64,000 nucleotides of DNA from Anaerolineales bacterium (GCA_020630175.1 JAHDBW010000003.1:11982-75981); one strand, 5' to 3'; shown: positions 14,332-28,874, counted from the stretch's first letter. Numbers and translations are program-made. Notes: generated from the letters alone by a model not told the origin.

Positions 14332-14455
14332 AGCACTTGAAAAACGATACTGTTTGGAACCACCAGAATTGTTATGGTCGTCATAACAATTTTCTAACTT
14401 TGATTATCGTACTCTGCTCAAGCCTTCGATGCAAGCGGCAGTCTGGATGGGTTAA

Positions 14456-17114: not shown

Positions 17115-17930
17115 CTAAAGCGCCTGTTTTGAAGGGGGAAATGCGTTTCCAGATGCAATAGGGGTCACTGATCCAGTTAACAGAATAGTGTTTTGGTTAG
17201 AAATATCAACATTAAGCAATCCACCGCAGGTTTGTACAGTTACCTGATTTTTTACATATTGCAACTGATTTGCGGCGGCAGCGGCGGCGCAACTGCTGCT
17301 GCCAGATGACAATGTGTAACCAGCGCCGCGCTCCCAAATTTCAATTTTGATAGTGTCTTGATCAACGCGTTCTAAGAACTGAACGTTGGTTCGATTAGGG
17401 AAGTTGGCGTGGGTTTCGATAGATGGACCGAGCGCTAGCGCAGTCGCTTTTGTTGCGGGCTGGCCTAACACAACACAGTGTGGGTTACCCATTGAGACCG
17501 GTAGGTATTGAATTTGCGTTTGATCTGGCAGGGTGAGGCTTTTTATTGCGGGGGCAATGGTTGCAGTGCCCATCTCAATTTTGATTAATGCATTAGATAG
17601 CTTAGTGGCACGCCTTTTAGCAAATGGGGTTTGCAGGACGATGGTGGTTAAGGCTGGGTCAGCGTCGAATAAGTACCGCGCAAAAATTCTTAGGCCGTTG
17701 CCGCTGGTTTCTGCTTCGCTGCCATCTGGATTGAAAATGCGCAGTTTTGCCACGCCAGCCGCAGCGGAGCCATAATCAATAAGCAGGCCGTCACTGCCTA
17801 CGCCAAAGTCAGTGTGGCATAGCCAGCGTGCAATGTCTGCTTCGGTATGCGTTGCGACTGCACTGGCTGGCACCACAATGTACGTGTTGCCAAGCGCCTG
17901 ATATTTTGAAAACTGAATGGAATGAGGCAA
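17115..17930 (-). CDS. DapF-fold (diaminopimelate epimerase family) protein with Ser at both catalytic Cys positions
   Basis: Collinear with DapF: FSKYQALGNTY, RIFNPDGSEAETSGNGLR, SMGNPHCV, ERGAGYTLSSGSSSCAA. The TTG start directly abuts the kinase stop codon. Confidence 0.8.
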   Translation of the reverse strand: MPHSIQFSKYQALGNTYIVVPASAVATHTEADIARWLCHTDFGVGSDGLLIDYGSAAAGVAKLRIFNPDGSEAETSGNGLRIFARYLFDADPALTTIVLQTPFAKRRATKLSNALIKIEMGTATIAPAIKSLTLPDQTQIQYLPVSMGNPHCVVLGQPATKATALALGPSIETHANFPNRTNVQFLERVDQDTIKIEIWERGAGYTLSSGSSSCAAAAAANQLQYVKNQVTVQTCGGLLNVDISNQNTILLTGSVTPIASGNAFPPSKQAL

Positions 17931-20188: not shown

Positions 20189-21898
20189 CTACAGGTACCC
20201 TTCATCGAAATCACTTTTAGCACTTTCATAGGCAGTTTGCTGGTCGTCTTCATTTAGATACCCAACCGCACGATAAAGCGTTTCGTCATAGTCGCGGGTT
20301 TTGATCACAACTGGCATCGGCACTGCATGGCCTAATATCAATGCTTGCTGTTGCGTATCTAGCCGGGCTAACACTTCACGTAGTGAGCTTGCGCCACTAA
20401 CCCCAGAGAACACTGCGCGAATATCAGCTTCGTTATCAAGCAGGGCGGTGACGCGCGTGCCGATCTGGCTCATGACTTCATCATCGATTCCGCTTGGGCG
20501 CTGATCTACGACTAACAAAGTGACGTTGTACTTGCGTAGCTCACGGGCAATCGTGCCAAAAATTGTGTGTTTTGCAATTTCTGGATCAAGAAACTTGTGC
20601 GCTTCTTCGATCACAATCATCAGCGGTTTGGGTTGCGCGCCTTTTTGGGTTGTCGCCTTGTTTTTCGCCTCAACATAACGCTGGTGAACGCGGCGCGTGA
20701 GGTAATTTGCAACCAGCATATAGGCGGGTAGATTATCCCCATGCTTGCCAAATTCGAGCACGACACTGGTGCCATTGGTGAGCTTGTCGAAGATTTCGGT
20801 AACAACATTGTTGCTACTTTTTTCAACGAGAAAATCCATGCGCCGGAATAGTTCAAACTTCCGTTGGATAGCACTCAACGTGCCTTTGACCAACATGCCT
20901 TCATCAATAATCGTGTCGATTTCGTCACTGCCTTTTTCATCAAGTAACTTGGCGACCCAGTCTTTGCCTAATTTGCGGCGTAAATAATAGAGTGCGCCCG
21001 TTTGCACGTCGGACAGGTTCAGCATGCTGCTGAGCATTTCTACATCGGCGGGCTCAATATCTGAATATTGAATTTGGAATTCACCTGAAATTGTGTTGTT
21101 CCGCGCGCGCGATGTTTCTGCATCCAAGGTGTATAGGCTAGGGCGATTGGACGCAAGGATCTGGGTTAGCCCTTTCCACGTTTTGCCACGCTCATTCGTG
21201 ATTTCCCAGCCATAATCGCTGTGCATGTCAAAAATCAGACAAGAGGCTTTTTGCTTTGCAATCACGGCGGCTAACAAGGTCCGGGTGATAAAGGATTTCC
21301 CGGTCCCGCTCTTGCCAAACACGCCTGAAGACCGTTCTACAAAGCGATCTAGATCAAGGTTGACCTTGACGCCATCCATATCCAGCGGTGACCCGATGTA
21401 AAAGTGGTCGTCATCTTCTTCACCAAAGACTTGGTTTACGTCCTCTTCAGTGGCTTTGAAGACCGGTGAAAAGTGCGCTGGAATGGTCTTGTTAGGACGC
21501 GGTTCTTTGGCGTCTTCTTCTAACATCAACATTGGTGAGATGTTGGCGCGACCATAGGCGACGGTTGCGCGATAAATGTCCGCTAAGAATGGGCTGCTTG
21601 GGTCTGGTGGCGTTTGCTCAATGGCTGGATTGGTGTTATCTAAGATGATGTCCGTCACAATTGAGAAGAACTTCCGCTTCGTAAGCCCTTGCGCCACAAC
21701 GTAACGCCCAACGGCCATGTCTTCAATGGTTTGGCCAACGGCAGAACTGCTGTCTAGTTTGACCGTAATGCCCTTAGAAAGCGAACCGCCAACCACAACG
21801 CCGAGGCGTACGCGCGCTTCCTCACTGGCAGTGTCATTTTCTAATCCGATGGGGCGATTGTCTTCATCGCGTGGTAAAAAATCGTCTAAGTCGCTCAT
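20189..21898 (-). CDS. herA: HerA/FtsK-superfamily ATPase (DUF87-type)
   Basis: N-terminal barrel-like segment, Walker A GKSGTGKS, Walker B LMIVIEEAH, and LLVVDQRPS. Confidence 0.8.
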   Translation of the reverse strand: MSDLDDFLPRDEDNRPIGLENDTASEEARVRLGVVVGGSLSKGITVKLDSSSAVGQTIEDMAVGRYVVAQGLTKRKFFSIVTDIILDNTNPAIEQTPPDPSSPFLADIYRATVAYGRANISPMLMLEEDAKEPRPNKTIPAHFSPVFKATEEDVNQVFGEEDDDHFYIGSPLDMDGVKVNLDLDRFVERSSGVFGKSGTGKSFITRTLLAAVIAKQKASCLIFDMHSDYGWEITNERGKTWKGLTQILASNRPSLYTLDAETSRARNNTISGEFQIQYSDIEPADVEMLSSMLNLSDVQTGALYYLRRKLGKDWVAKLLDEKGSDEIDTIIDEGMLVKGTLSAIQRKFELFRRMDFLVEKSSNNVVTEIFDKLTNGTSVVLEFGKHGDNLPAYMLVANYLTRRVHQRYVEAKNKATTQKGAQPKPLMIVIEEAHKFLDPEIAKHTIFGTIARELRKYNVTLLVVDQRPSGIDDEVMSQIGTRVTALLDNEADIRAVFSGVSGASSLREVLARLDTQQQALILGHAVPMPVVIKTRDYDETLYRAVGYLNEDDQQTAYESAKSDFDEGYL

Positions 21899-22482
21899 AG
21901 TAAGCTCTCCAAGCGGCGTAAGATGGTGTCCAGACGTTGGAAGTCGTTCCCCATTAACTGGGCTAAATATTGCCCAGCGGTGCGTAGATATTGCGCCCGA
22001 TTTGGGTGGGCTTGCGCGGCTTGTTCTAGGACGCGCACGGTTAGTTCATCTGTGGGGGCGTCACTGGCTTGGAAGATCAACCTTAGAAAGTTGAAATCAC
22101 TTGTGAGCGCGGCAATTTCGGTATGTTCGCACAGCGCAATGTGGCTCAGCGTGAGCGGCGGTTGCGGTGGCAAGCCCGTGCGTACTTTTGTGCCTTGCAT
22201 ATAGCCAAGCGTTAGCACGCTTACCTCAATCGGCATTTGACGCTGCCGCTGATCTTGAATGATTTCAATCGGCGTGTCTTGATTGCCAACAATCTGCCGC
22301 ACAAGGTCATCATCTTCTAAAACAATGTTATAGATGGTGCCAATGGCGTGCGCAGTGCCGTTTTGAATAGGAACTTTTACAAATGCACCAAAATGGGGCA
22401 TCTCTGGTTTAGGAATAGCACAGCCAAAGGTGAAGCTCTGAATAGAGCTATGTAATAGCTGCCCGATTTGAATAGGCGACAT
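21895..22482 (-). CDS. 195-aa protein of unknown family, N-terminus HAS-barrel-like
   Basis: ATGA overlap with herA and a 5-nt gap after nurA. The N-terminal ~60 aa follow the same hydrophobic/Gly pattern as the HerA N-terminus. Confidence 0.6.
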   Translation of the reverse strand: MSPIQIGQLLHSSIQSFTFGCAIPKPEMPHFGAFVKVPIQNGTAHAIGTIYNIVLEDDDLVRQIVGNQDTPIEIIQDQRQRQMPIEVSVLTLGYMQGTKVRTGLPPQPPLTLSHIALCEHTEIAALTSDFNFLRLIFQASDAPTDELTVRVLEQAAQAHPNRAQYLRTAGQYLAQLMGNDFQRLDTILRRLESLL

Positions 22483-23717: not shown

Positions 23718-23785
23718 GTCTCAGAACACGCGTTCGTATTATAGGCGAAATTTCATAATCTGGATAGGCGGTGAGTACTCCGCGT

Positions 23786-23803
23786 TTATAACAAGGTTAT
23801 AAC
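23786..23803. promoter_or_regulatory. operator-like site 1: TTATAAC-aagg-TTATAAC
   Basis: Lies between divergent -10 boxes: TATAAT at 23825-23830 (+) and TATAAT (reverse complement of 23738-23743) for nurA. One of three copies in the window. Confidence 0.55.
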
Positions 23804-23824
23804 TATGCATGCCTTGTAAATCAC

Positions 23825-24037
23825 TATAATACCCGCGCATCATTTAGTTGTACCCATGATGAAGTAGTGTTCGGCCTTGGCCGAGAGAGGATTCTTTTCG
23901 GAATGACACAACCGATATGGTTCAACAGCAGCAGCTTATAAATGCCCTTGGATGAGGGAAGTTGCCGGACAGTTGCCATCGATGTTTTGGTCTTAGCTTG
24001 ACCGCTAGAGCGCATTGTCTTTTGACAATGCGTTTTT
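23825..24037 (+). ncRNA. candidate small transcription unit (sRNA or 12-codon sORF mRNA)
   Basis: Perfect TATAAT 21 nt after site 1. Then a CUUG-loop hairpin plus GAGAGAGGAT box, ATG 23903 to TAA 23941, ending at a 9-bp-stem terminator with T5. Confidence 0.35.
24011..24037 (+). terminator. intrinsic terminator
   Basis: CGCATTGTC-TTTT-GACAATGCG followed by TTTTT. No A-run upstream, so it is plus-strand specific. Confidence 0.7.
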
Positions 24038-24073
24038 AGATTCTGATTCTGTTGATGGTTGGCGGAGGTGCTT

Positions 24074-24259
24074 ATGTTTTATAACAAACTTATAACAGCA
24101 ATGCTAAAGATCTCTCTCTATAATCAATCACGACACACTCACAGGGGCTTTCCAGCTATTTTTTGTTTAGATGCGGCTTTAAACGCCGAGAGAGGATCTG
24201 AATTGATGCGGCGGAAAGACTTCCTAACTATCCGATTTGATCACAACAATCTTTTGTAA
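24074..24259 (+). CDS. candidate 61-aa ORF (uncertain)
   Basis: Perfect SD GGAGGTG 3 nt before ATG 24074. However, the ORF contains operator site 2 and a TATAAT box and has no recognisable family. Confidence 0.25.
   Translation: MFYNKLITAMLKISLYNQSRHTHRGFPAIFCLDAALNAERGSELMRRKDFLTIRFDHNNLL
24079..24096. promoter_or_regulatory. operator-like site 2: TTATAAC-aaac-TTATAAC
   Basis: Followed after 22 nt by a perfect TATAAT (24119-24124). Same architecture as site 1. Confidence 0.55.
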
Positions 24260-24609
24260 TCACAAAATGTAAATATGCGTTACGACCTATTACAGCGGGT
24301 TTATGTTTCTAGCAACAACAGAGAGAGGCGTTGTTATGAATATTAGATCAGATGTAACCGTTGTAACACGAAGATCGATAGTGTGGTTTATGTTTCCTGC
24401 CAATATATAAGTGGCATAGAGAGGGGAATATAAAACTGCGCAGCTTTCAATAGCGATAGCTTAGAAACGCTCTAAACCAGAGAGGCTATTGGGCAGTGGG
24501 CTGAATGCTACGATCATTCACATATCAATCAGATTGTTATTACTAAGGCGCGGCGTGATCATCTGTGCTTGAGTATCCAGTTGTATTTTAAGAGAACTCA
24601 AAGGTATTT

Positions 24610-25923
24610 ATGAAATTGCTAACTAAATTGAAGCTACAGTTAAGTGTGCTCCTGGTTGTACTAGTGGCAATCTTTGCTGCACCGGTGCTTGCTGCGCCTG
24701 CGGCACAAGACTCGGTTAAGGCAACAACAGAGTATGTTGTGCAAAGTGGAGACAATCTATCCCACCTTGGACGGCGGTTTGGGATGCACCCAAGCGTTAT
24801 CATCGGCGCTAACCCGCAGTTGGTCTTTCGTCCAAACGTGTTGATTCCTGGCGAAACGCTCATCATTCCCGGTGAACATTTTGTAGGGACTGACTCCGTT
24901 GCAGACGTGCTCGCAAGCGATCCGCGCTTGTCTACGTTCCTTATTGCGGCACGCACTGCAGAATTGTTAGACGATTTGGATTATGTGGGGCGATACACGG
25001 TTTTTGTTCCAACAAATGCTGCATTTCAACAGCTTTCATCAAGTGCACGTGGTGACCTGTTGAATAACTTGGCATTTATGAACACGATTGTGCATTACCA
25101 CATTGTGCCAGAGCGTTACACAATGGCAGAGCTTGCTAATCAAAGTGCCGTGGCGTCTTATTCAGGCGCAGGCATTAGCGTGACCGGATCTGGGTCAGCA
25201 TTAGCGGTCAATGGTGTTCCCATCAGTGCGGCAAGCAGTATCGAAACGTCTAACGGCGTTGTCTACCTGCTCCCGGCACTGTTACCATTGCCAGATGATG
25301 CCCAACTCACTACTGACGCAACAACAATTGACTTTGCTTCAACATTTGATGTCAACACAGCGGGCAATGCTACGGCTGTCCAAGCTGAAATTGCTGACGT
25401 TGCTGAGGCATTAGAAGAGGGTGCGGAAACAGATACAGAAGTCCTTGGGGTTGCGCTGCCAACACCTGCCAGCACGACTAACCAAGCGCTGACAGTGGCT
25501 ACAGCCAGCTTGTCTGGGAGTAACCTACGGGTTGCACCAAATTCTGTTGTACTGAGCTGTGGTTCCTTATCAGTTTCATTAAGCGATGTCTTACAGTCAC
25601 TTAGTGGGCCGCTTAGCATAAATACCCTAGATGTTGCATATGTGCATTACCATAATGGATTTAGCCGTGGCAGTACGGAGGCTTGTGTCACCTTCACTGC
25701 TGAGGTTGCGGGGGGTAAAGCGCCACATCGAATTTTGATCAACAACATTCCGATTGTGCCGCGCAATGCCCACCTGAATTCACGGGTCGGGGGCGAATTT
25801 GGTGACATTGAATTTGACGTATTGGCAGACTGCAATCAAGCTTACTCATTTGCACTTACAGTAGAAAGTGGAGATGGTCAGCAAGCCACGCGTGTCTTCA
25901 ACCAGTTCATTCCTTGCCCATAG
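24610..25923 (+). CDS. secreted LysM + fasciclin (FAS1) domain protein
   Basis: Signal peptide; LysM (YVVQSGDNLSHLGRRFG); FAS1 motifs (TVFVPTNAAFQQL, NGVVYLL); Cys-containing C-terminal domain. Confidence 0.8.
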   Translation: MKLLTKLKLQLSVLLVVLVAIFAAPVLAAPAAQDSVKATTEYVVQSGDNLSHLGRRFGMHPSVIIGANPQLVFRPNVLIPGETLIIPGEHFVGTDSVADVLASDPRLSTFLIAARTAELLDDLDYVGRYTVFVPTNAAFQQLSSSARGDLLNNLAFMNTIVHYHIVPERYTMAELANQSAVASYSGAGISVTGSGSALAVNGVPISAASSIETSNGVVYLLPALLPLPDDAQLTTDATTIDFASTFDVNTAGNATAVQAEIADVAEALEEGAETDTEVLGVALPTPASTTNQALTVATASLSGSNLRVAPNSVVLSCGSLSVSLSDVLQSLSGPLSINTLDVAYVHYHNGFSRGSTEACVTFTAEVAGGKAPHRILINNIPIVPRNAHLNSRVGGEFGDIEFDVLADCNQAYSFALTVESGDGQQATRVFNQFIPCP

Positions 25924-25978
25924 CGTGTAAGCAACACTCTTTGTGCAGTTGAAAGACCGTACAATTGAATATCGATCT

Positions 25979-26010
25979 AAAAAGCGCACCTAGCTGGGTG
26001 CGCTTTTTTG
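25979..26010 (+). terminator. intrinsic terminator
   Basis: GCGCACC-TAGCTG-GGTGCGC followed by TTTTTT. Confidence 0.7.
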
Positions 26011-26023
26011 TTATTATGCCTGC

Positions 26024-26410
26024 ATGGCAAACACATTTTCTCAATTTGTAACGTTTATTTATGTTAGTGATCTGAAGGCGTCTGCGGCGTTTTATGGCGG
26101 GCAACTTGGGTTAGAGTTAGTTTTAGATCAAGGCAGTTGCTATATTTTTCGCGTGGCTGGCGATGCGTTCTTAGGGGTTTGTGAAACAAAAAATGCCTTC
26201 ACAAACCGTGAAGGCATTATCATAACGCTCGTTTCAGAGGCAGTAGCGGATTGGGCGCTGCAATTACAAAAGCAGGGCGTTGTAATTGAAAAAGGGCCGT
26301 TACTCAATGCGCAATACAATATTTACCATTGCTTTTTGCGTGACCCCGATGGCTACTTGATTGAAATCCAACAGTTTCTAGATCCAGCTTGGCCAGCGCC
26401 GCTTACTTGA
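26024..26410 (+). CDS. VOC/glyoxalase-family protein
   Basis: 128 aa, VOC-like pattern (FVTFIYVSDLKASAAFY ... LRDPDGYLIEI). Confidence 0.75.
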   Translation: MANTFSQFVTFIYVSDLKASAAFYGGQLGLELVLDQGSCYIFRVAGDAFLGVCETKNAFTNREGIIITLVSEAVADWALQLQKQGVVIEKGPLLNAQYNIYHCFLRDPDGYLIEIQQFLDPAWPAPLT

Positions 26411-27335
26411 CACTACGTGAGAGTTCGTACAATTTATCAATGTATCCCACGATCATATCGCGGTGGGCTAGGGTGTCTAACCATTCGCTAGGAATATCAG
26501 CTTCGCCATAATATGCCCCAGCCAATTGCCCGTAGACAGCCCCAACCGTATCAGCATCATTGCCTAGGTTGACGGCTTTTAGCATACCGTCTTTGAAGTT
26601 GTCTGTGGTGTGGAATGCCCACAGCACGGCTTCAAGCGTATCTACAACATAGCCTGAGCTTTTGATGGCAGGCGGTTCTTTTTCTTTATAGTTACCTGAG
26701 GCGATTGCATCTACGTCTGGCATTAGTGGGTGTTGTTTCCAGTAACCAGCTTTTGGGCAATAGTGATCGCTTAGTAATTTCGCTTTATCGACTTCGTGGA
26801 ATGCGCCGAATAACAACGCGCCGAAGTAACGGCAGCTATCCACTGATGCAGGCGCAGCATGCGTGGTGCGTGAGCTGTTGCCACATAGAACTAATGCCTT
26901 GGCAGCATTGTTTACAAAATACATGGGAACAGGGCACAAGCGCATTAGGGAGCCGTTGCCAGCCGTATCTGGGTCAGTCGGGCCGCAGTAAGGCGTATGC
27001 ACTTCTAAGAATTTTTCTAGTGACCCTTTGGTTATTTTACCAATGTCAAAAGCGCTGCCAGTGCTGCTAAGGCGGCCTTCTTGATACCACTGTACATAGC
27101 GGTTTAGCTGATCTACAGCATCAAAGCGCTGCTTTTCAATTAGGCTTTCGGCCATACAGAGCGCCAATGATGTGTCGTCTGTCCAGTAGCCTGGTTCCAG
27201 ATCAAAAGGCCCGCCCCCACGCATTCCGGTTACTGGCTCAAATGTGCCTGGTTCTTTAAATTCAATTGCTGCACCTAGTGCATCGCCAATGGCTAAACCA
27301 AGCAACGCGCCGCGAAATCTTTCATGCAATTCCAT
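26403..27335 (-). CDS. ADP-ribosylglycohydrolase family protein
   Basis: N-terminal GALLGLAIGDALGA, plus WTDDTS and GNDADTVGAVYGQLAGAYYG metal-site motifs. Confidence 0.85.
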   Translation of the reverse strand: MELHERFRGALLGLAIGDALGAAIEFKEPGTFEPVTGMRGGGPFDLEPGYWTDDTSLALCMAESLIEKQRFDAVDQLNRYVQWYQEGRLSSTGSAFDIGKITKGSLEKFLEVHTPYCGPTDPDTAGNGSLMRLCPVPMYFVNNAAKALVLCGNSSRTTHAAPASVDSCRYFGALLFGAFHEVDKAKLLSDHYCPKAGYWKQHPLMPDVDAIASGNYKEKEPPAIKSSGYVVDTLEAVLWAFHTTDNFKDGMLKAVNLGNDADTVGAVYGQLAGAYYGEADIPSEWLDTLAHRDMIVGYIDKLYELSRSVK

Positions 27336-27597
27336 TATGGAGTTTGTCCCTTTTCCAACAAGTCAATAAGGTAAGTCAATTTTCTGGATCTAGCTGTTAA
27401 CAACTCAGCAAAATACATATACATCTGAAAAGTGACTGTAAAACGGGAATTCAATACTTAGTGCAAACAATTTGGATTGTTCAAGCAGCAAATTCTTAAA
27501 ACCCATAATAAGATAGCACAGATGTCGTTTGAATGCTATTTGAAAATCACAACATTTTCCACTAAAGTAAGACTTTTCTCAAAGGGAGCCTAAATTT

Positions 27598-28314
27598 ATG
27601 CAACGCAGCGATGGCCGTAAGCCACATCAGATTCGTCCAGTAACAATCACAACAGACTTCATTGACTATCCAGAAGGGTCTTGTTTAATCGAAATGGGCA
27701 ACACACGCGTCCTATGTAACGCCACCTTAGAGGAATCAGTGCCACGTTGGATGAAGGGCTCTGGTAAGGGCTGGATTACGGCTGAATACTCTATGCTGCC
27801 GCGCTCTACGCATACCCGAACGCGCCGCGAAACGTCTGGGCTTTCTGGCCGCACGCAAGAAATCAAACGCCTGATTGGGCGTAGCTTACGGGCTGCGTTT
27901 GATTTGTCAATTATGGGTGAGCGGATGTGCATTGTCGATTGCGACGTTTTACAGGCCGATGGAGGCACACGTACGGCTGCGATTACCGGTAGTTATGTTG
28001 CCGTGGCGCTGGCGTTACAAGGGGCTATTGATGCGGGTAAATTGCCAGCTAGAGTGCTTGGCAATGGCATGGCTGCCATTAGCGTGGGCGTGGTGAGCGG
28101 CAATGTGCTGCTAGACCTTTGTTATAGCGAAGATTCAAAAGCAGACGTGGATGCGAATATTGTTATGACGGCGTCTGGCAAGCTGATTGAAGTGCAGGGC
28201 ACAGCCGAAGGTCAGCCGTTTAGCCGGGGGCACCTGAACAAGATGCTAGATTATGCAGAGCACGGCATTGCAGAGCTCATTGATATTCAAAAAGCGGCGC
28301 TTGGGCGGGGATAG
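27598..28314 (+). CDS. rph: ribonuclease PH
   Basis: RSDGR...R, GSCLIEMGNTRVLC, and DCDVLQADGGTRTAAITG motifs; 238 aa. Confidence 0.95.
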   Translation: MQRSDGRKPHQIRPVTITTDFIDYPEGSCLIEMGNTRVLCNATLEESVPRWMKGSGKGWITAEYSMLPRSTHTRTRRETSGLSGRTQEIKRLIGRSLRAAFDLSIMGERMCIVDCDVLQADGGTRTAAITGSYVAVALALQGAIDAGKLPARVLGNGMAAISVGVVSGNVLLDLCYSEDSKADVDANIVMTASGKLIEVQGTAEGQPFSRGHLNKMLDYAEHGIAELIDIQKAALGRG

Positions 28315-28342
28315 GCTAGCCCAAGCCCTAACATCAAGAATC

Positions 28343-28373
28343 AAAAAACGGAGTGACCTGCACTCCGTTTTTG
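28343..28373. terminator. bidirectional intrinsic terminator
   Basis: ACGGAGTG-ACCTG-CACTCCGT flanked by an A-run and a T-run. Confidence 0.75.
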
Positions 28374-28459
28374 AATTAATTTACATGTGTGCCACAAACG
28401 GGTTGCGGTTACACTGACAAACACGTCATTTTGTTTTCAACGTGCTACCCAGCGCAACT

Positions 28460-28807
28460 TTAACTGGCCAATTGGCGTGGGTGATGTAAACCGCTCATTG
28501 CGTCAACGTCAGCAGCAAGTTTTTCCTGCTGTTTAGGGCTAAGCGTGTGCCATTTGCCAACGATTTGGCGTAATGTTGGATCTGGACGTAAAAGCCCTAA
28601 TACATCATAGACTTCAGGCCCTAAGGTTTCTGCAAGATGGTCAACATGCCGACCAGCTGGCACAACCTTGCCATTCATCCAACGGCTTAGATTTGCCCCG
28701 CTTGTGTTGAGGTAATCAGCAAAGTGGCTCGCGGATCTGGCATGATCACGGTGTTGTTGCCACTCTTCATATTTCTCTTGTAACCAGCGACTAAATGATA
28801 TGGACAT
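28460..28807 (-). CDS. XRE-family helix-turn-helix regulator, probably leaderless
   Basis: HTH FADYLNTSGANLSRWMNGKVVP. ATG 28805-28807 lies 6 nt after a TACAAT -10 box (reverse complement of 28814-28819). The track ORF starts at GTG 28822. Confidence 0.7.
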   Translation of the reverse strand: MSISFSRWLQEKYEEWQQHRDHARSASHFADYLNTSGANLSRWMNGKVVPAGRHVDHLAETLGPEVYDVLGLLRPDPTLRQIVGKWHTLSPKQQEKLAADVDAMSGLHHPRQLAS

Positions 28808-28856
28808 GGCGCGATTGTACACGAGTGTTTTGCCGTTGTTGACCCACTTTTAAGGC

Positions 28857-28874
28857 TTATAACGGACTTATAAC
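28857..28874. promoter_or_regulatory. operator-like site 3: TTATAAC-ggac-TTATAAC
   Basis: Lies 37 nt upstream of the TACAAT -10 box of the XRE gene. Identical half-sites and 11-bp period as sites 1 and 2. Confidence 0.55.

Follow-up and report, generated by a model that had tools for sequence, protein, structure and literature searches.

We analysed a stretch of 64,000 nucleotides (64 kb) from an Anaerolineales bacterium (GCA_020630175.1, JAHDBW010000003.1:11982-75981), referred to below as the window, in which a sequence-only reading had noticed an 18-bp element with 14 fixed positions, TTATAAC-N4-TTATAAC (TTATAACNNNNTTATAAC), and had taken it for an operator linking the nurA operon, two small transcription units and the gene of an XRE regulator. 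As summarized in Table 1, sites 1 and 2 lie in the 890-bp region between nurA, which heads a minus-strand operon with a 195-amino-acid (aa) open reading frame (ORF) and herA, and a plus-strand gene for a 437-aa protein with LysM and fasciclin domains. Each of these two sites precedes a predicted promoter (P1 and P2, respectively) and a predicted transcription unit (units 1 and 2). Site 3 lies upstream of the minus-strand gene of a 115-aa predicted helix-turn-helix (HTH) protein of the Cro/C1 type, called the XRE-like protein hereafter.

Occurrence, conservation and symmetry of the element

A pattern search recovered exactly three copies of TTATAACNNNNTTATAAC in the window, all on the plus strand and where they had first been reported, whereas 100 dinucleotide-preserving shuffles gave none (mean 0.00, maximum 0), and the judgement that three chance occurrences are not credible was therefore upheld. 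The distances quoted in the sequence-only reading (21 and 22 nt on the plus strand, 42, 40 and 37 nt on the minus strand, and 6 nt to the ATG) also proved correct upon re-measurement. Allowing one or two mismatches added solely the same three sites read in reverse and one two-mismatch element at 14381, and allowing up to three added just a few weak matches beyond the reverse reads. The lone heptamer TTATAAC showed no overall enrichment (11 observed versus 5.9 expected), and 6 of these 11 lie inside the three sites.

Two related Anaerolineales metagenome-assembled genomes were found through a homologue of the 115-aa protein and through a NurA scan of species-representative genomes, in which NurA identity was 72-74% in these two and at most 31% in every other match; 17-27 kb of each was searched (L001, contig JAHDIM010000002.1; L002, contig JAHDBS010000050.1). 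From these matches the window was assigned to an uncultured bacterium of the Anaerolineales (Chloroflexota); none of its gene products had an identical entry among recorded proteins. Synteny was intact across all three genomes, and the gene order of L001 was that of the window, namely lacZ, a small gene, rph, the ADP-ribosylglycohydrolase, glyoxalase and fasciclin genes, nurA, the 195-aa ORF and herA. Each relative carried exactly three copies of the motif, at the three orthologous positions, and 9 of 9 orthologous sites were perfect at the 14 fixed positions. The spacers of sites 1 to 3 read AAGG, AAAC and GGAC in the window, GGAC, AAAC and AGAC in L001, and AGAC at all three sites in L002, giving the consensus TTATAAC-RRAC-TTATAAC over the genomes. 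In a three-way alignment of the nurA-fasciclin intergenic region, identity between the window and either relative was ~45% once the sites were set apart, with 36% of the columns invariant, sites 1 and 2 being among about a dozen invariant blocks of at least 7 nt. Since the sites are perfect while the flanking intergenic DNA is only ~45% identical, they have the character of a selected binding site rather than of a dispersed repeat. At the level of aligned sequence, this phylogenetic footprint clearly rules out chance and recent duplication as explanations of the motif, and we consider it very likely that the motif is a selected operator, with predicted protein binding, tied to three promoters. 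The comparison of orthologous intergenic regions that had been proposed thus bore out the earlier description of a non-random, operator-like element.

The same data bear on the possibility that the motif is no regulator site at all, and is instead a dispersed-repeat remnant, a recombinase arm-type site or the promoter element itself, given that TATAAC and TATAAG match the -10 box TATAAT at five of six positions, that the three copies share one orientation, and that P1 and P2 are paralogous and hence of common ancestry. The surroundings of the sites have diverged completely, whereas the 14 positions and the 11-bp register are invariant, and site 3 has no flanking sequence in common with sites 1 and 2. 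Spread over many unrelated loci, which the sequence-only reading had named as an observation that would speak against an operator, was not seen; there were only three copies in the 64-kb window and three per stretch in the relatives, with none of the many copies, extended flank similarity or terminal inverted repeats that mark repetitive extragenic palindromic sequences or miniature inverted-repeat transposable elements. Nor was an integrase or recombinase present near the sites in this syntenic locus, and scans of viral and metagenome sequences gave only single, unrelated AT-rich matches. Taken together, these observations make a nonregulatory origin of the motif very improbable.

With regard to those scans, a viral-contig search for TTATAACRRACTTATAAC gave 41 single, unrelated matches, indicating that the operator does not belong to a phage operator family. 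A metagenome search for TTATAACN4TTATAAC-N20-23-TATAMT returned, among the matches listed, AT-rich chance matches and one similar GC-rich match (L091; also L162, 9181-9198, and L308). The latter is IMG/VR contig Ga0214471_10000233 (50.8 kb, 54% GC, with tail genes), in which one perfect TTATAACGAACTTATAAC is followed after 22 nt by TATACT, then by ~280 nt without an ORF and by a strong terminator, an architecture like that of units 1 and 2. No XRE-like gene occurs within 20 kb of this single site, which could be due to chance or to a phage of this lineage; because the site is single and lacks an XRE-like gene, it was not counted as evidence. A literature search on TTATAAC direct repeats found nothing relevant.

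The sequence-only reading had described the element as a 7-nt direct repeat with an 11-bp period. The hexamer TTATAA is its own reverse complement, so that the motif also reads as an inverted repeat (TTATAA-N5-TTATAA, symmetric at 12 of 17 positions), a point absent from that reading. The C that follows each hexamer (C7 and C18) is present in 18 of 18 half-sites, whereas the symmetric G in front occurs in 1 of 18, and it is on this account that we favour the direct-repeat reading. The element has the repeat unit (6-7 bp) and the period (10-11 bp) of an OmpR/PhoB-type response-regulator box, so the earlier description holds in this respect, the palindromic hexamer leaving room for a dyad reading as well.

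A degenerate operator-like element, TCATAACAATTTTCTAAC, lies at 14381-14398 of the window, with an orthologue, CTAAAACGAATTTCTAAC, at L003 19146-19163. It is situated directly downstream of a conserved GATAAT box and before a minus-strand lipoprotein-like gene (ATG near 14332). The block is conserved as a whole, and a weak fourth site is only one possible reading of it.

Table 1. Positions of the sites, predicted promoters, predicted RNAs and genes in the window
Feature	Coordinates	Strand	Basis or remarks
195-aa ORF between nurA and herA	21895-22482	-	No Pfam family; position conserved in both relatives
nurA promoter segment with the GAAC-N4-GTTC palindrome	23724-23743	-	GAACACGCGTTC in the window, GAACGTGTGTTC in both relatives
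-10 box of nurA, TATAAT	23738-23743	-	Part of a conserved promoter block
Site 1, TTATAACAAGGTTATAAC	23786-23803	+	Exact match; orthologues L001 15044-15061, L002 9867-9884, perfect at all 14 fixed positions
-10 box of P1, TATAAT (TATACT in relatives)	23825-23830	+	21 nt after site 1; same spacing in three genomes
Unit 1, putative ~200-nt small RNA gene	23837-24039	+	5' end predicted; 3' end at an intrinsic terminator
Hairpin module, copy 1, inside the putative small RNA	23913-23985	+	Alignment A9; covariance model R1, 73 bits; L001 14863-14933, L002 9685-9755
Intrinsic terminator of unit 1, GCGCATTGTC-TTTT-GACAATGCG, then T-run	24010-24039	+	RNAfold, RNAalifold
Site 2, TTATAACAAACTTATAAC	24079-24096	+	Exact match; orthologues L001 14756-14773, L002 9579-9596
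-10 box of P2, TATAAT	24119-24124	+	22 nt after site 2; box and spacing invariant in three genomes; no -35 hexamer
Unit 2, putative ~480-nt transcript or leader	24131-24609	+	Conserved blocks GTTTAGATGCGGC and GCCGAGAGAGG
Hairpin module, copy 2, ~100 nt upstream of the LysM/fasciclin ATG	24438-24509	+	R1, 78.5 bits; covariation; L001 14357-14428, L002 9178-9252
Gene of 437-aa protein with LysM and fasciclin domains	24610-25923	+	Pfam LysM, Fasciclin; syntenic in L001 and L002
Gene of 115-aa XRE-like protein, candidate binder	28460-28807	-	Pfam matches of relatives, AlphaFold2, Foldseek, PHROG
Core promoter of XRE-like gene, TCAACA-17 nt-TACAAT-6 nt-ATG	28814-28842	-	Promoter scan; same layout in L001 and L002
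Site 3, TTATAACGGACTTATAAC	28857-28874	+	Exact match; orthologues L001 9934-9951, L002 4857-4874; inverted relative to the XRE-like gene

P1, P2 and the predicted RNAs

On the plus strand, the sequence-only reading had placed TATAAT boxes 21 and 22 nt after sites 1 and 2, at the head of two small transcription units, and the relatives agree with this in that the spacing is fixed at both promoters in all three genomes. In none of the three was there a TTGACA-like hexamer 16-18 nt upstream of either -10 box, or a TG extension. A transcription start ~7 nt past the -10 box, which at P1 would coincide with a GCATCAT conserved in three genomes, would place the operator at approximately -51 to -34, with its centre near -42/-43. 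At these two sigma-70-type promoters, with a good -10 box and no -35 box, a bound protein would stand in for the -35 contact in class II geometry, and activation of P1 and P2 through the operator is, in our estimate, fairly probable.

Unit 1 ends at a terminator ~200 nt from the predicted start, the stem of which differs in sequence in each genome at an identical position; RNAfold folded the terminator hairpin and U-run in the window and in L001. In all three genomes a small hairpin is followed by CGAGAGAGG and then by a two-tier hairpin, and RNAalifold on the three orthologues gave 55 pairs, 18 of which were kept through compensatory changes on both sides. A short ORF from a conserved ATG comprises 12 codons here versus 25 in the relatives, and the differences between the two relatives are all non-synonymous. 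Because the terminator and the covarying structure are kept and the short ORF is not conserved, we read unit 1 as a putative gene for a structured, terminator-ended small RNA (sRNA) of ~200 nt.

The first ~70 nt of unit 2 are paralogous to unit 1 (GTTTAGATGCGGC...GCCGAGAGAGG), the small hairpin and GCCGAGAGAGG being found at 24165-24195. No terminator was found downstream of P2 within unit 2, and the two-tier hairpin recurs there, ~100 nt ahead of the start codon of the LysM/fasciclin gene. For these reasons unit 2 is most simply taken as a putative leader, ~480 nt long, of the LysM/fasciclin gene, which is likely the protein-coding target of P2. We also considered small proteins as products of units 1 and 2 and rejected them, as the ORFs vary in length and sequence across the genomes (no conservation was seen among those of unit 2) and hairpin copy 2 is not preceded by a start codon in frame.

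The two-tier stem common to both RNAs is flanked by conserved UUCAAYAGC and GGRCAGUKG. In alignment A9, which holds six copies, two from each of the three genomes, 98.7% of the cells were paired and 6 of 13 pairs had changed on both sides, whereas in slid controls, with partners shifted by 1-3 columns, pairing went down to 37-56%. Since no in-frame start codon lies upstream of copy 2, this conservation is not due to coding. The covariance model R1, trained on these six copies, found no further copy in the window or in the other loci searched, and Rfam gave no match in the whole window at the gathering score, only chance-level matches appearing at E up to 10. The module shared by the putative sRNA and leader thus covaries clearly, and it is a previously undescribed predicted RNA structure.

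A pattern built on the hairpin flanks, TTCAAYAGC-N28-48-GGGCAGTGG, was also run against viral contigs and discarded, as its matches (L164-L283) turned out to be a widespread phage protein-coding stretch in a different reading frame (FNSIK...GQWSARKA; segment …RKALFNSIKAGGKGG.PGQWSARKA…), with variation at third codon positions. Separately, all six AGAGAGG heptamers of the window are on the plus strand, and five of these copies fall within 600 bp (23884-24485), most of them conserved in the relatives. This repeat could pair with a CCUUUCU-type 3' tail of 16S rRNA, in the manner of a Shine-Dalgarno sequence, or be a protein-binding repeat.

In contrast to the plus-strand promoters, the minus-strand ones assigned to sites 1 and 2 did not withstand the comparison. 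The distance from site 1 to the -10 box of nurA is 42 nt here versus about 79 and about 90 nt in the relatives, owing to insertions of about 37 and 48 bp between the nurA promoter block and site 1 that follow no helical phasing; the conserved block itself (TATAAT, then GAACACGCGTTC, then ATG) ends before site 1. Given this variable, unphased spacing, site 1 belongs to P1 and not to nurA, and the proposed link to the nurA operon was not supported. Similarly, the TAAAAA that had been proposed as a minus-strand -10 box at 24033-24038 is the complement of the T-run in the unit 1 terminator, and no minus-strand gene is present there.

The nurA promoter has a palindrome of its own, GAAC-N4-GTTC, between TATAAT and ATG; elsewhere in the window it recurs just once, within coding sequence at 17381. 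The palindrome matches the LexA (Cheo) box of Gram-positive-type SOS systems. The nurA operon thus looks like one that carries a putative LexA/Cheo-type SOS box, which would fit a repair operon; a literature search on LexA boxes in Chloroflexi found nothing usable.

The XRE-like protein and the promoter of its gene

The sequence-only reading had named the 115-aa protein an XRE regulator. By itself, the protein scored below the Pfam cut-offs, with 14.8 bits for HTH_31 (cut-off, 27) and 12.9 bits for HTH_3 (cut-off, 23). An exhaustive HMMER search yielded 879 representative relatives, and 52 of the 61 aligned ones match HTH_3 (PF01381). AlphaFold2 modelling with the alignment of relatives gave a five-helix Cro/C1 fold with a predicted local distance difference test score of 92.6, compared with an uninformative 51 from a two-sequence input. 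The top Foldseek matches of this model were all of the Cro/C1 type (434 repressor, P22 c2, HigA, C.Csp231I, SinR, ImmR and DdrO), and the protein matched PHROG 3949, 'transcriptional repressor', with E = 2.4e-5. These data indicated that, by its relatives and its predicted fold, the protein is a Cro/C1-type HTH regulator, so that the name XRE was supported in both respects, though not by the protein's own Pfam score.

Among 5.8 billion protein clusters, the sole close homologue was P0001 (88% identity), encoded by L001; L002 also encodes an XRE-like protein at the same place, and close orthologues were found solely in the three motif-bearing genomes. More distant relatives (35-45% identity; metagenome contigs L028, L031, L034, L156 and L159) are divergent from a small gene and adjoin integrases, FtsK-like or DNA methyltransferase genes. 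On the strength of this divergent small gene and of the integrase-type neighbours, the family resembles the CI/Cro-type switches of mobile elements. None of 50,697 phage genomes contained a match to the XRE-like protein in a tblastn search.

On the minus strand, the region upstream of the XRE-like gene reads GTTATAAGTCCGTTATAAG, 13 nt, TCAACA, 17 nt, TACAAT, CGCGCC and ATG (28805-28807), and both L001 and L002 have TAAACA-17-TACAAT-CGCGCC-ATG. As the -35 and -10 boxes are conserved with the ATG 6 nt after the -10 box in all three genomes, the mRNA is very probably leaderless, as had been proposed on the layout of the window. Several distant relatives appear leaderless too, e.g., L156, with TAGAAT 7 nt before the ATG. 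Site 3 is located 13 bp upstream of the -35 box in all three genomes; its distance from the ATG is 52-69 nt, corresponding to approximately -66 to -49 (about -57), and on the plus strand no -10-like box follows it at 21-22 nt. The XRE-like gene therefore has, as in classical XRE autoregulation, a conserved site in its own upstream region.

These features also bear on the possibility of a repressor system, in which the XRE-like protein, bound immediately ahead of the -10 box, would keep P1 and P2 silent and would autoregulate its own gene. Such a system would suit the CI/Cro-like divergent switches next to integrases among its relatives, the PHROG match and the predominance of repressors among its structural matches. 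Nevertheless, P1 and P2, with neither a -35 box nor an extended -10, would be weak unaided, the operator overlaps the -10 box or the start site at none of the three promoters, and site 3 stands 13 bp clear of the -35 box. We consider repression to be quite unlikely.

Candidate binders and comparison with known systems

The best explanation we can offer is that one sequence-specific protein binds all three TTATAAC-RRAC-TTATAAC operators, probably as two subunits one helical turn (11 bp) apart, and that this protein is the XRE-like one, which would activate two RNA promoters and, from about -57, modulate that of its own gene. P1 would then yield the ~200-nt sRNA, and P2 the leader that runs into the LysM/fasciclin surface-protein gene, with the same hairpin in both RNAs. 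Three parts of this scheme are inferred, namely where transcription starts, whether the protein activates or represses, and which protein binds. For the last of these, the XRE-like protein is favoured because a site lies in its own upstream region, because it co-occurs with the motif in the same lineage, and because there is no alternative regulator nearby: in a Pfam scan of 37 of the larger ORFs of the window, the only other predicted DNA-binding protein was a TetR, 15 kb away. Binding of the XRE-like protein as a symmetric dimer would also agree with the palindromic hexamers. Its identification as the binder is put forward tentatively, and the explanation as a whole, from the binding of three operators to the activation of P1/P2 and the modulation of its own gene, is a credible one that falls somewhat short of probable.

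Several observations weigh against this explanation. The usual operator of an XRE-type protein is dyad symmetric and overlaps the core promoter of its own gene, whereas the conserved C at positions 7 and 18 is a direct-repeat signature, and site 3 is clear of both -35 and -10 and overlaps neither these boxes nor the start site of the XRE-like gene. Furthermore, site 3 differs from sites 1 and 2 in its opposite orientation and in its distance (about -57), so that one mechanism cannot apply unchanged to all three. The upstream regions of the distant relatives (35-45% identity) contain no TTATAAC and no common 11-bp direct repeat, which makes the specificity untraceable through the family. Finally, it is possible that the cognate regulator is encoded elsewhere in the genome, the span searched being 64 kb here and 17-27 kb in each relative. 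A partial resemblance in L156 (AGCATAGCTTA...GGGCAGTGGAC) was not recovered by the covariance model.

The main rival as the binder is a tandem-binding winged-helix response regulator (OmpR/PhoB/SARP-like) encoded elsewhere, for which the element would serve as the box and the XRE-like gene, the sRNA and the leader/fasciclin gene as regulon members. Such a protein would naturally account for a 7-bp direct repeat of 11-bp period in which 18 of 18 half-sites have the C, and for a box that covers the -35 region where the promoter has no -35 hexamer, according to pho-box logic; possible degenerate third repeats (TGTAAC/TGTAAT/TGCTAAA) occur ~12 nt further on, and nearby genes code for two orphan histidine kinases and for a REC-GAF protein. 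The scan of the 37 ORFs, however, revealed neither Trans_reg_C nor another winged-helix regulator, the box ends 21-22 nt from the -10 box, one helical turn further upstream than in the pho box, and site 3 is inverted at about -57. We regard this regulator as possible but doubtful. A more speculative variant, which we think unlikely, retains the XRE-like protein as the binder: a CI-like repressor of a mobile element, domesticated in one Anaerolineales lineage, would have become a head-to-tail, direct-repeat activator of a paralogous sRNA and leader, and the sRNA would imitate the leader, or serve as its decoy, towards an RNA-binding factor or a ligand.

Whichever protein binds, the locus is a new, lineage-restricted small regulon of a familiar kind, made up of a regulator, an operator and a small regulon. 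It appears compact, in that a single 18-bp operator is found at three promoters next to the gene of a candidate regulator of 115 aa, and a new covarying RNA hairpin recurs in the putative sRNA and the putative leader. To our knowledge, almost nothing has been reported on transcription control or small RNAs in Anaerolineae, which are abundant, mostly uncultured bacteria of sludge and sediments.

Among known systems, the pho box of PhoB (OmpR family) is a pair of 7-bp direct repeats, 4 bp apart, that covers the -35 region of -35-less promoters. The element described here has the same 7+4 layout and 11-bp period, at promoters with a -10 and no -35 box. It differs in that its sequence is unrelated, that it ends 21-22 nt from the -10 box versus about 10 nt for the pho box, that no winged-helix regulator was found nearby, and that its third copy is inverted and further upstream. 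SARP and CtrA-type boxes, with heptamer repeats of 11-bp period and TTAA-N7-TTAAC, respectively, are similar in being short AT-rich repeats in an 11-bp register that adjoin a -10 box, but these come from different phyla and their cognate proteins are winged-helix regulators, which were not seen here.

The XRE-like protein itself is better compared with lambda CI at PRM, a Cro/C1-type HTH protein that activates its own leaderless gene from a class II position. The likeness lies in a small Cro/C1-type HTH candidate with prophage-type relatives, an apparently leaderless mRNA and an operator centre near -42 at P1/P2. Lambda operators, in contrast, are dyad symmetric and overlap divergent promoters, whereas here a direct-repeat reading applies and the protein's own site is at about -57; moreover, the XRE-like gene is chromosomal and has no Cro partner.

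For a direct-repeat reading by a protein of this type, there is a precedent in the P2 C repressor (P2 here not being our promoter), a Cro/C1-type HTH protein that recognises non-palindromic direct repeats (PMC2995052). This precedent makes the XRE-like candidate compatible with the direct-repeat reading of the element, although the two proteins have no detectable sequence relationship. In the case of P2 C, roughly two helical turns separate the half-sites, which lie on either side of the -10 box of the repressed promoter. If the XRE-like protein is the binder, it would be the second well-defined Cro/C1 reader of direct repeats after P2 C, and one that acts as an activator; if it is not, the locus would still hold a clean new response-regulator box, and the biology would be of a familiar kind either way.

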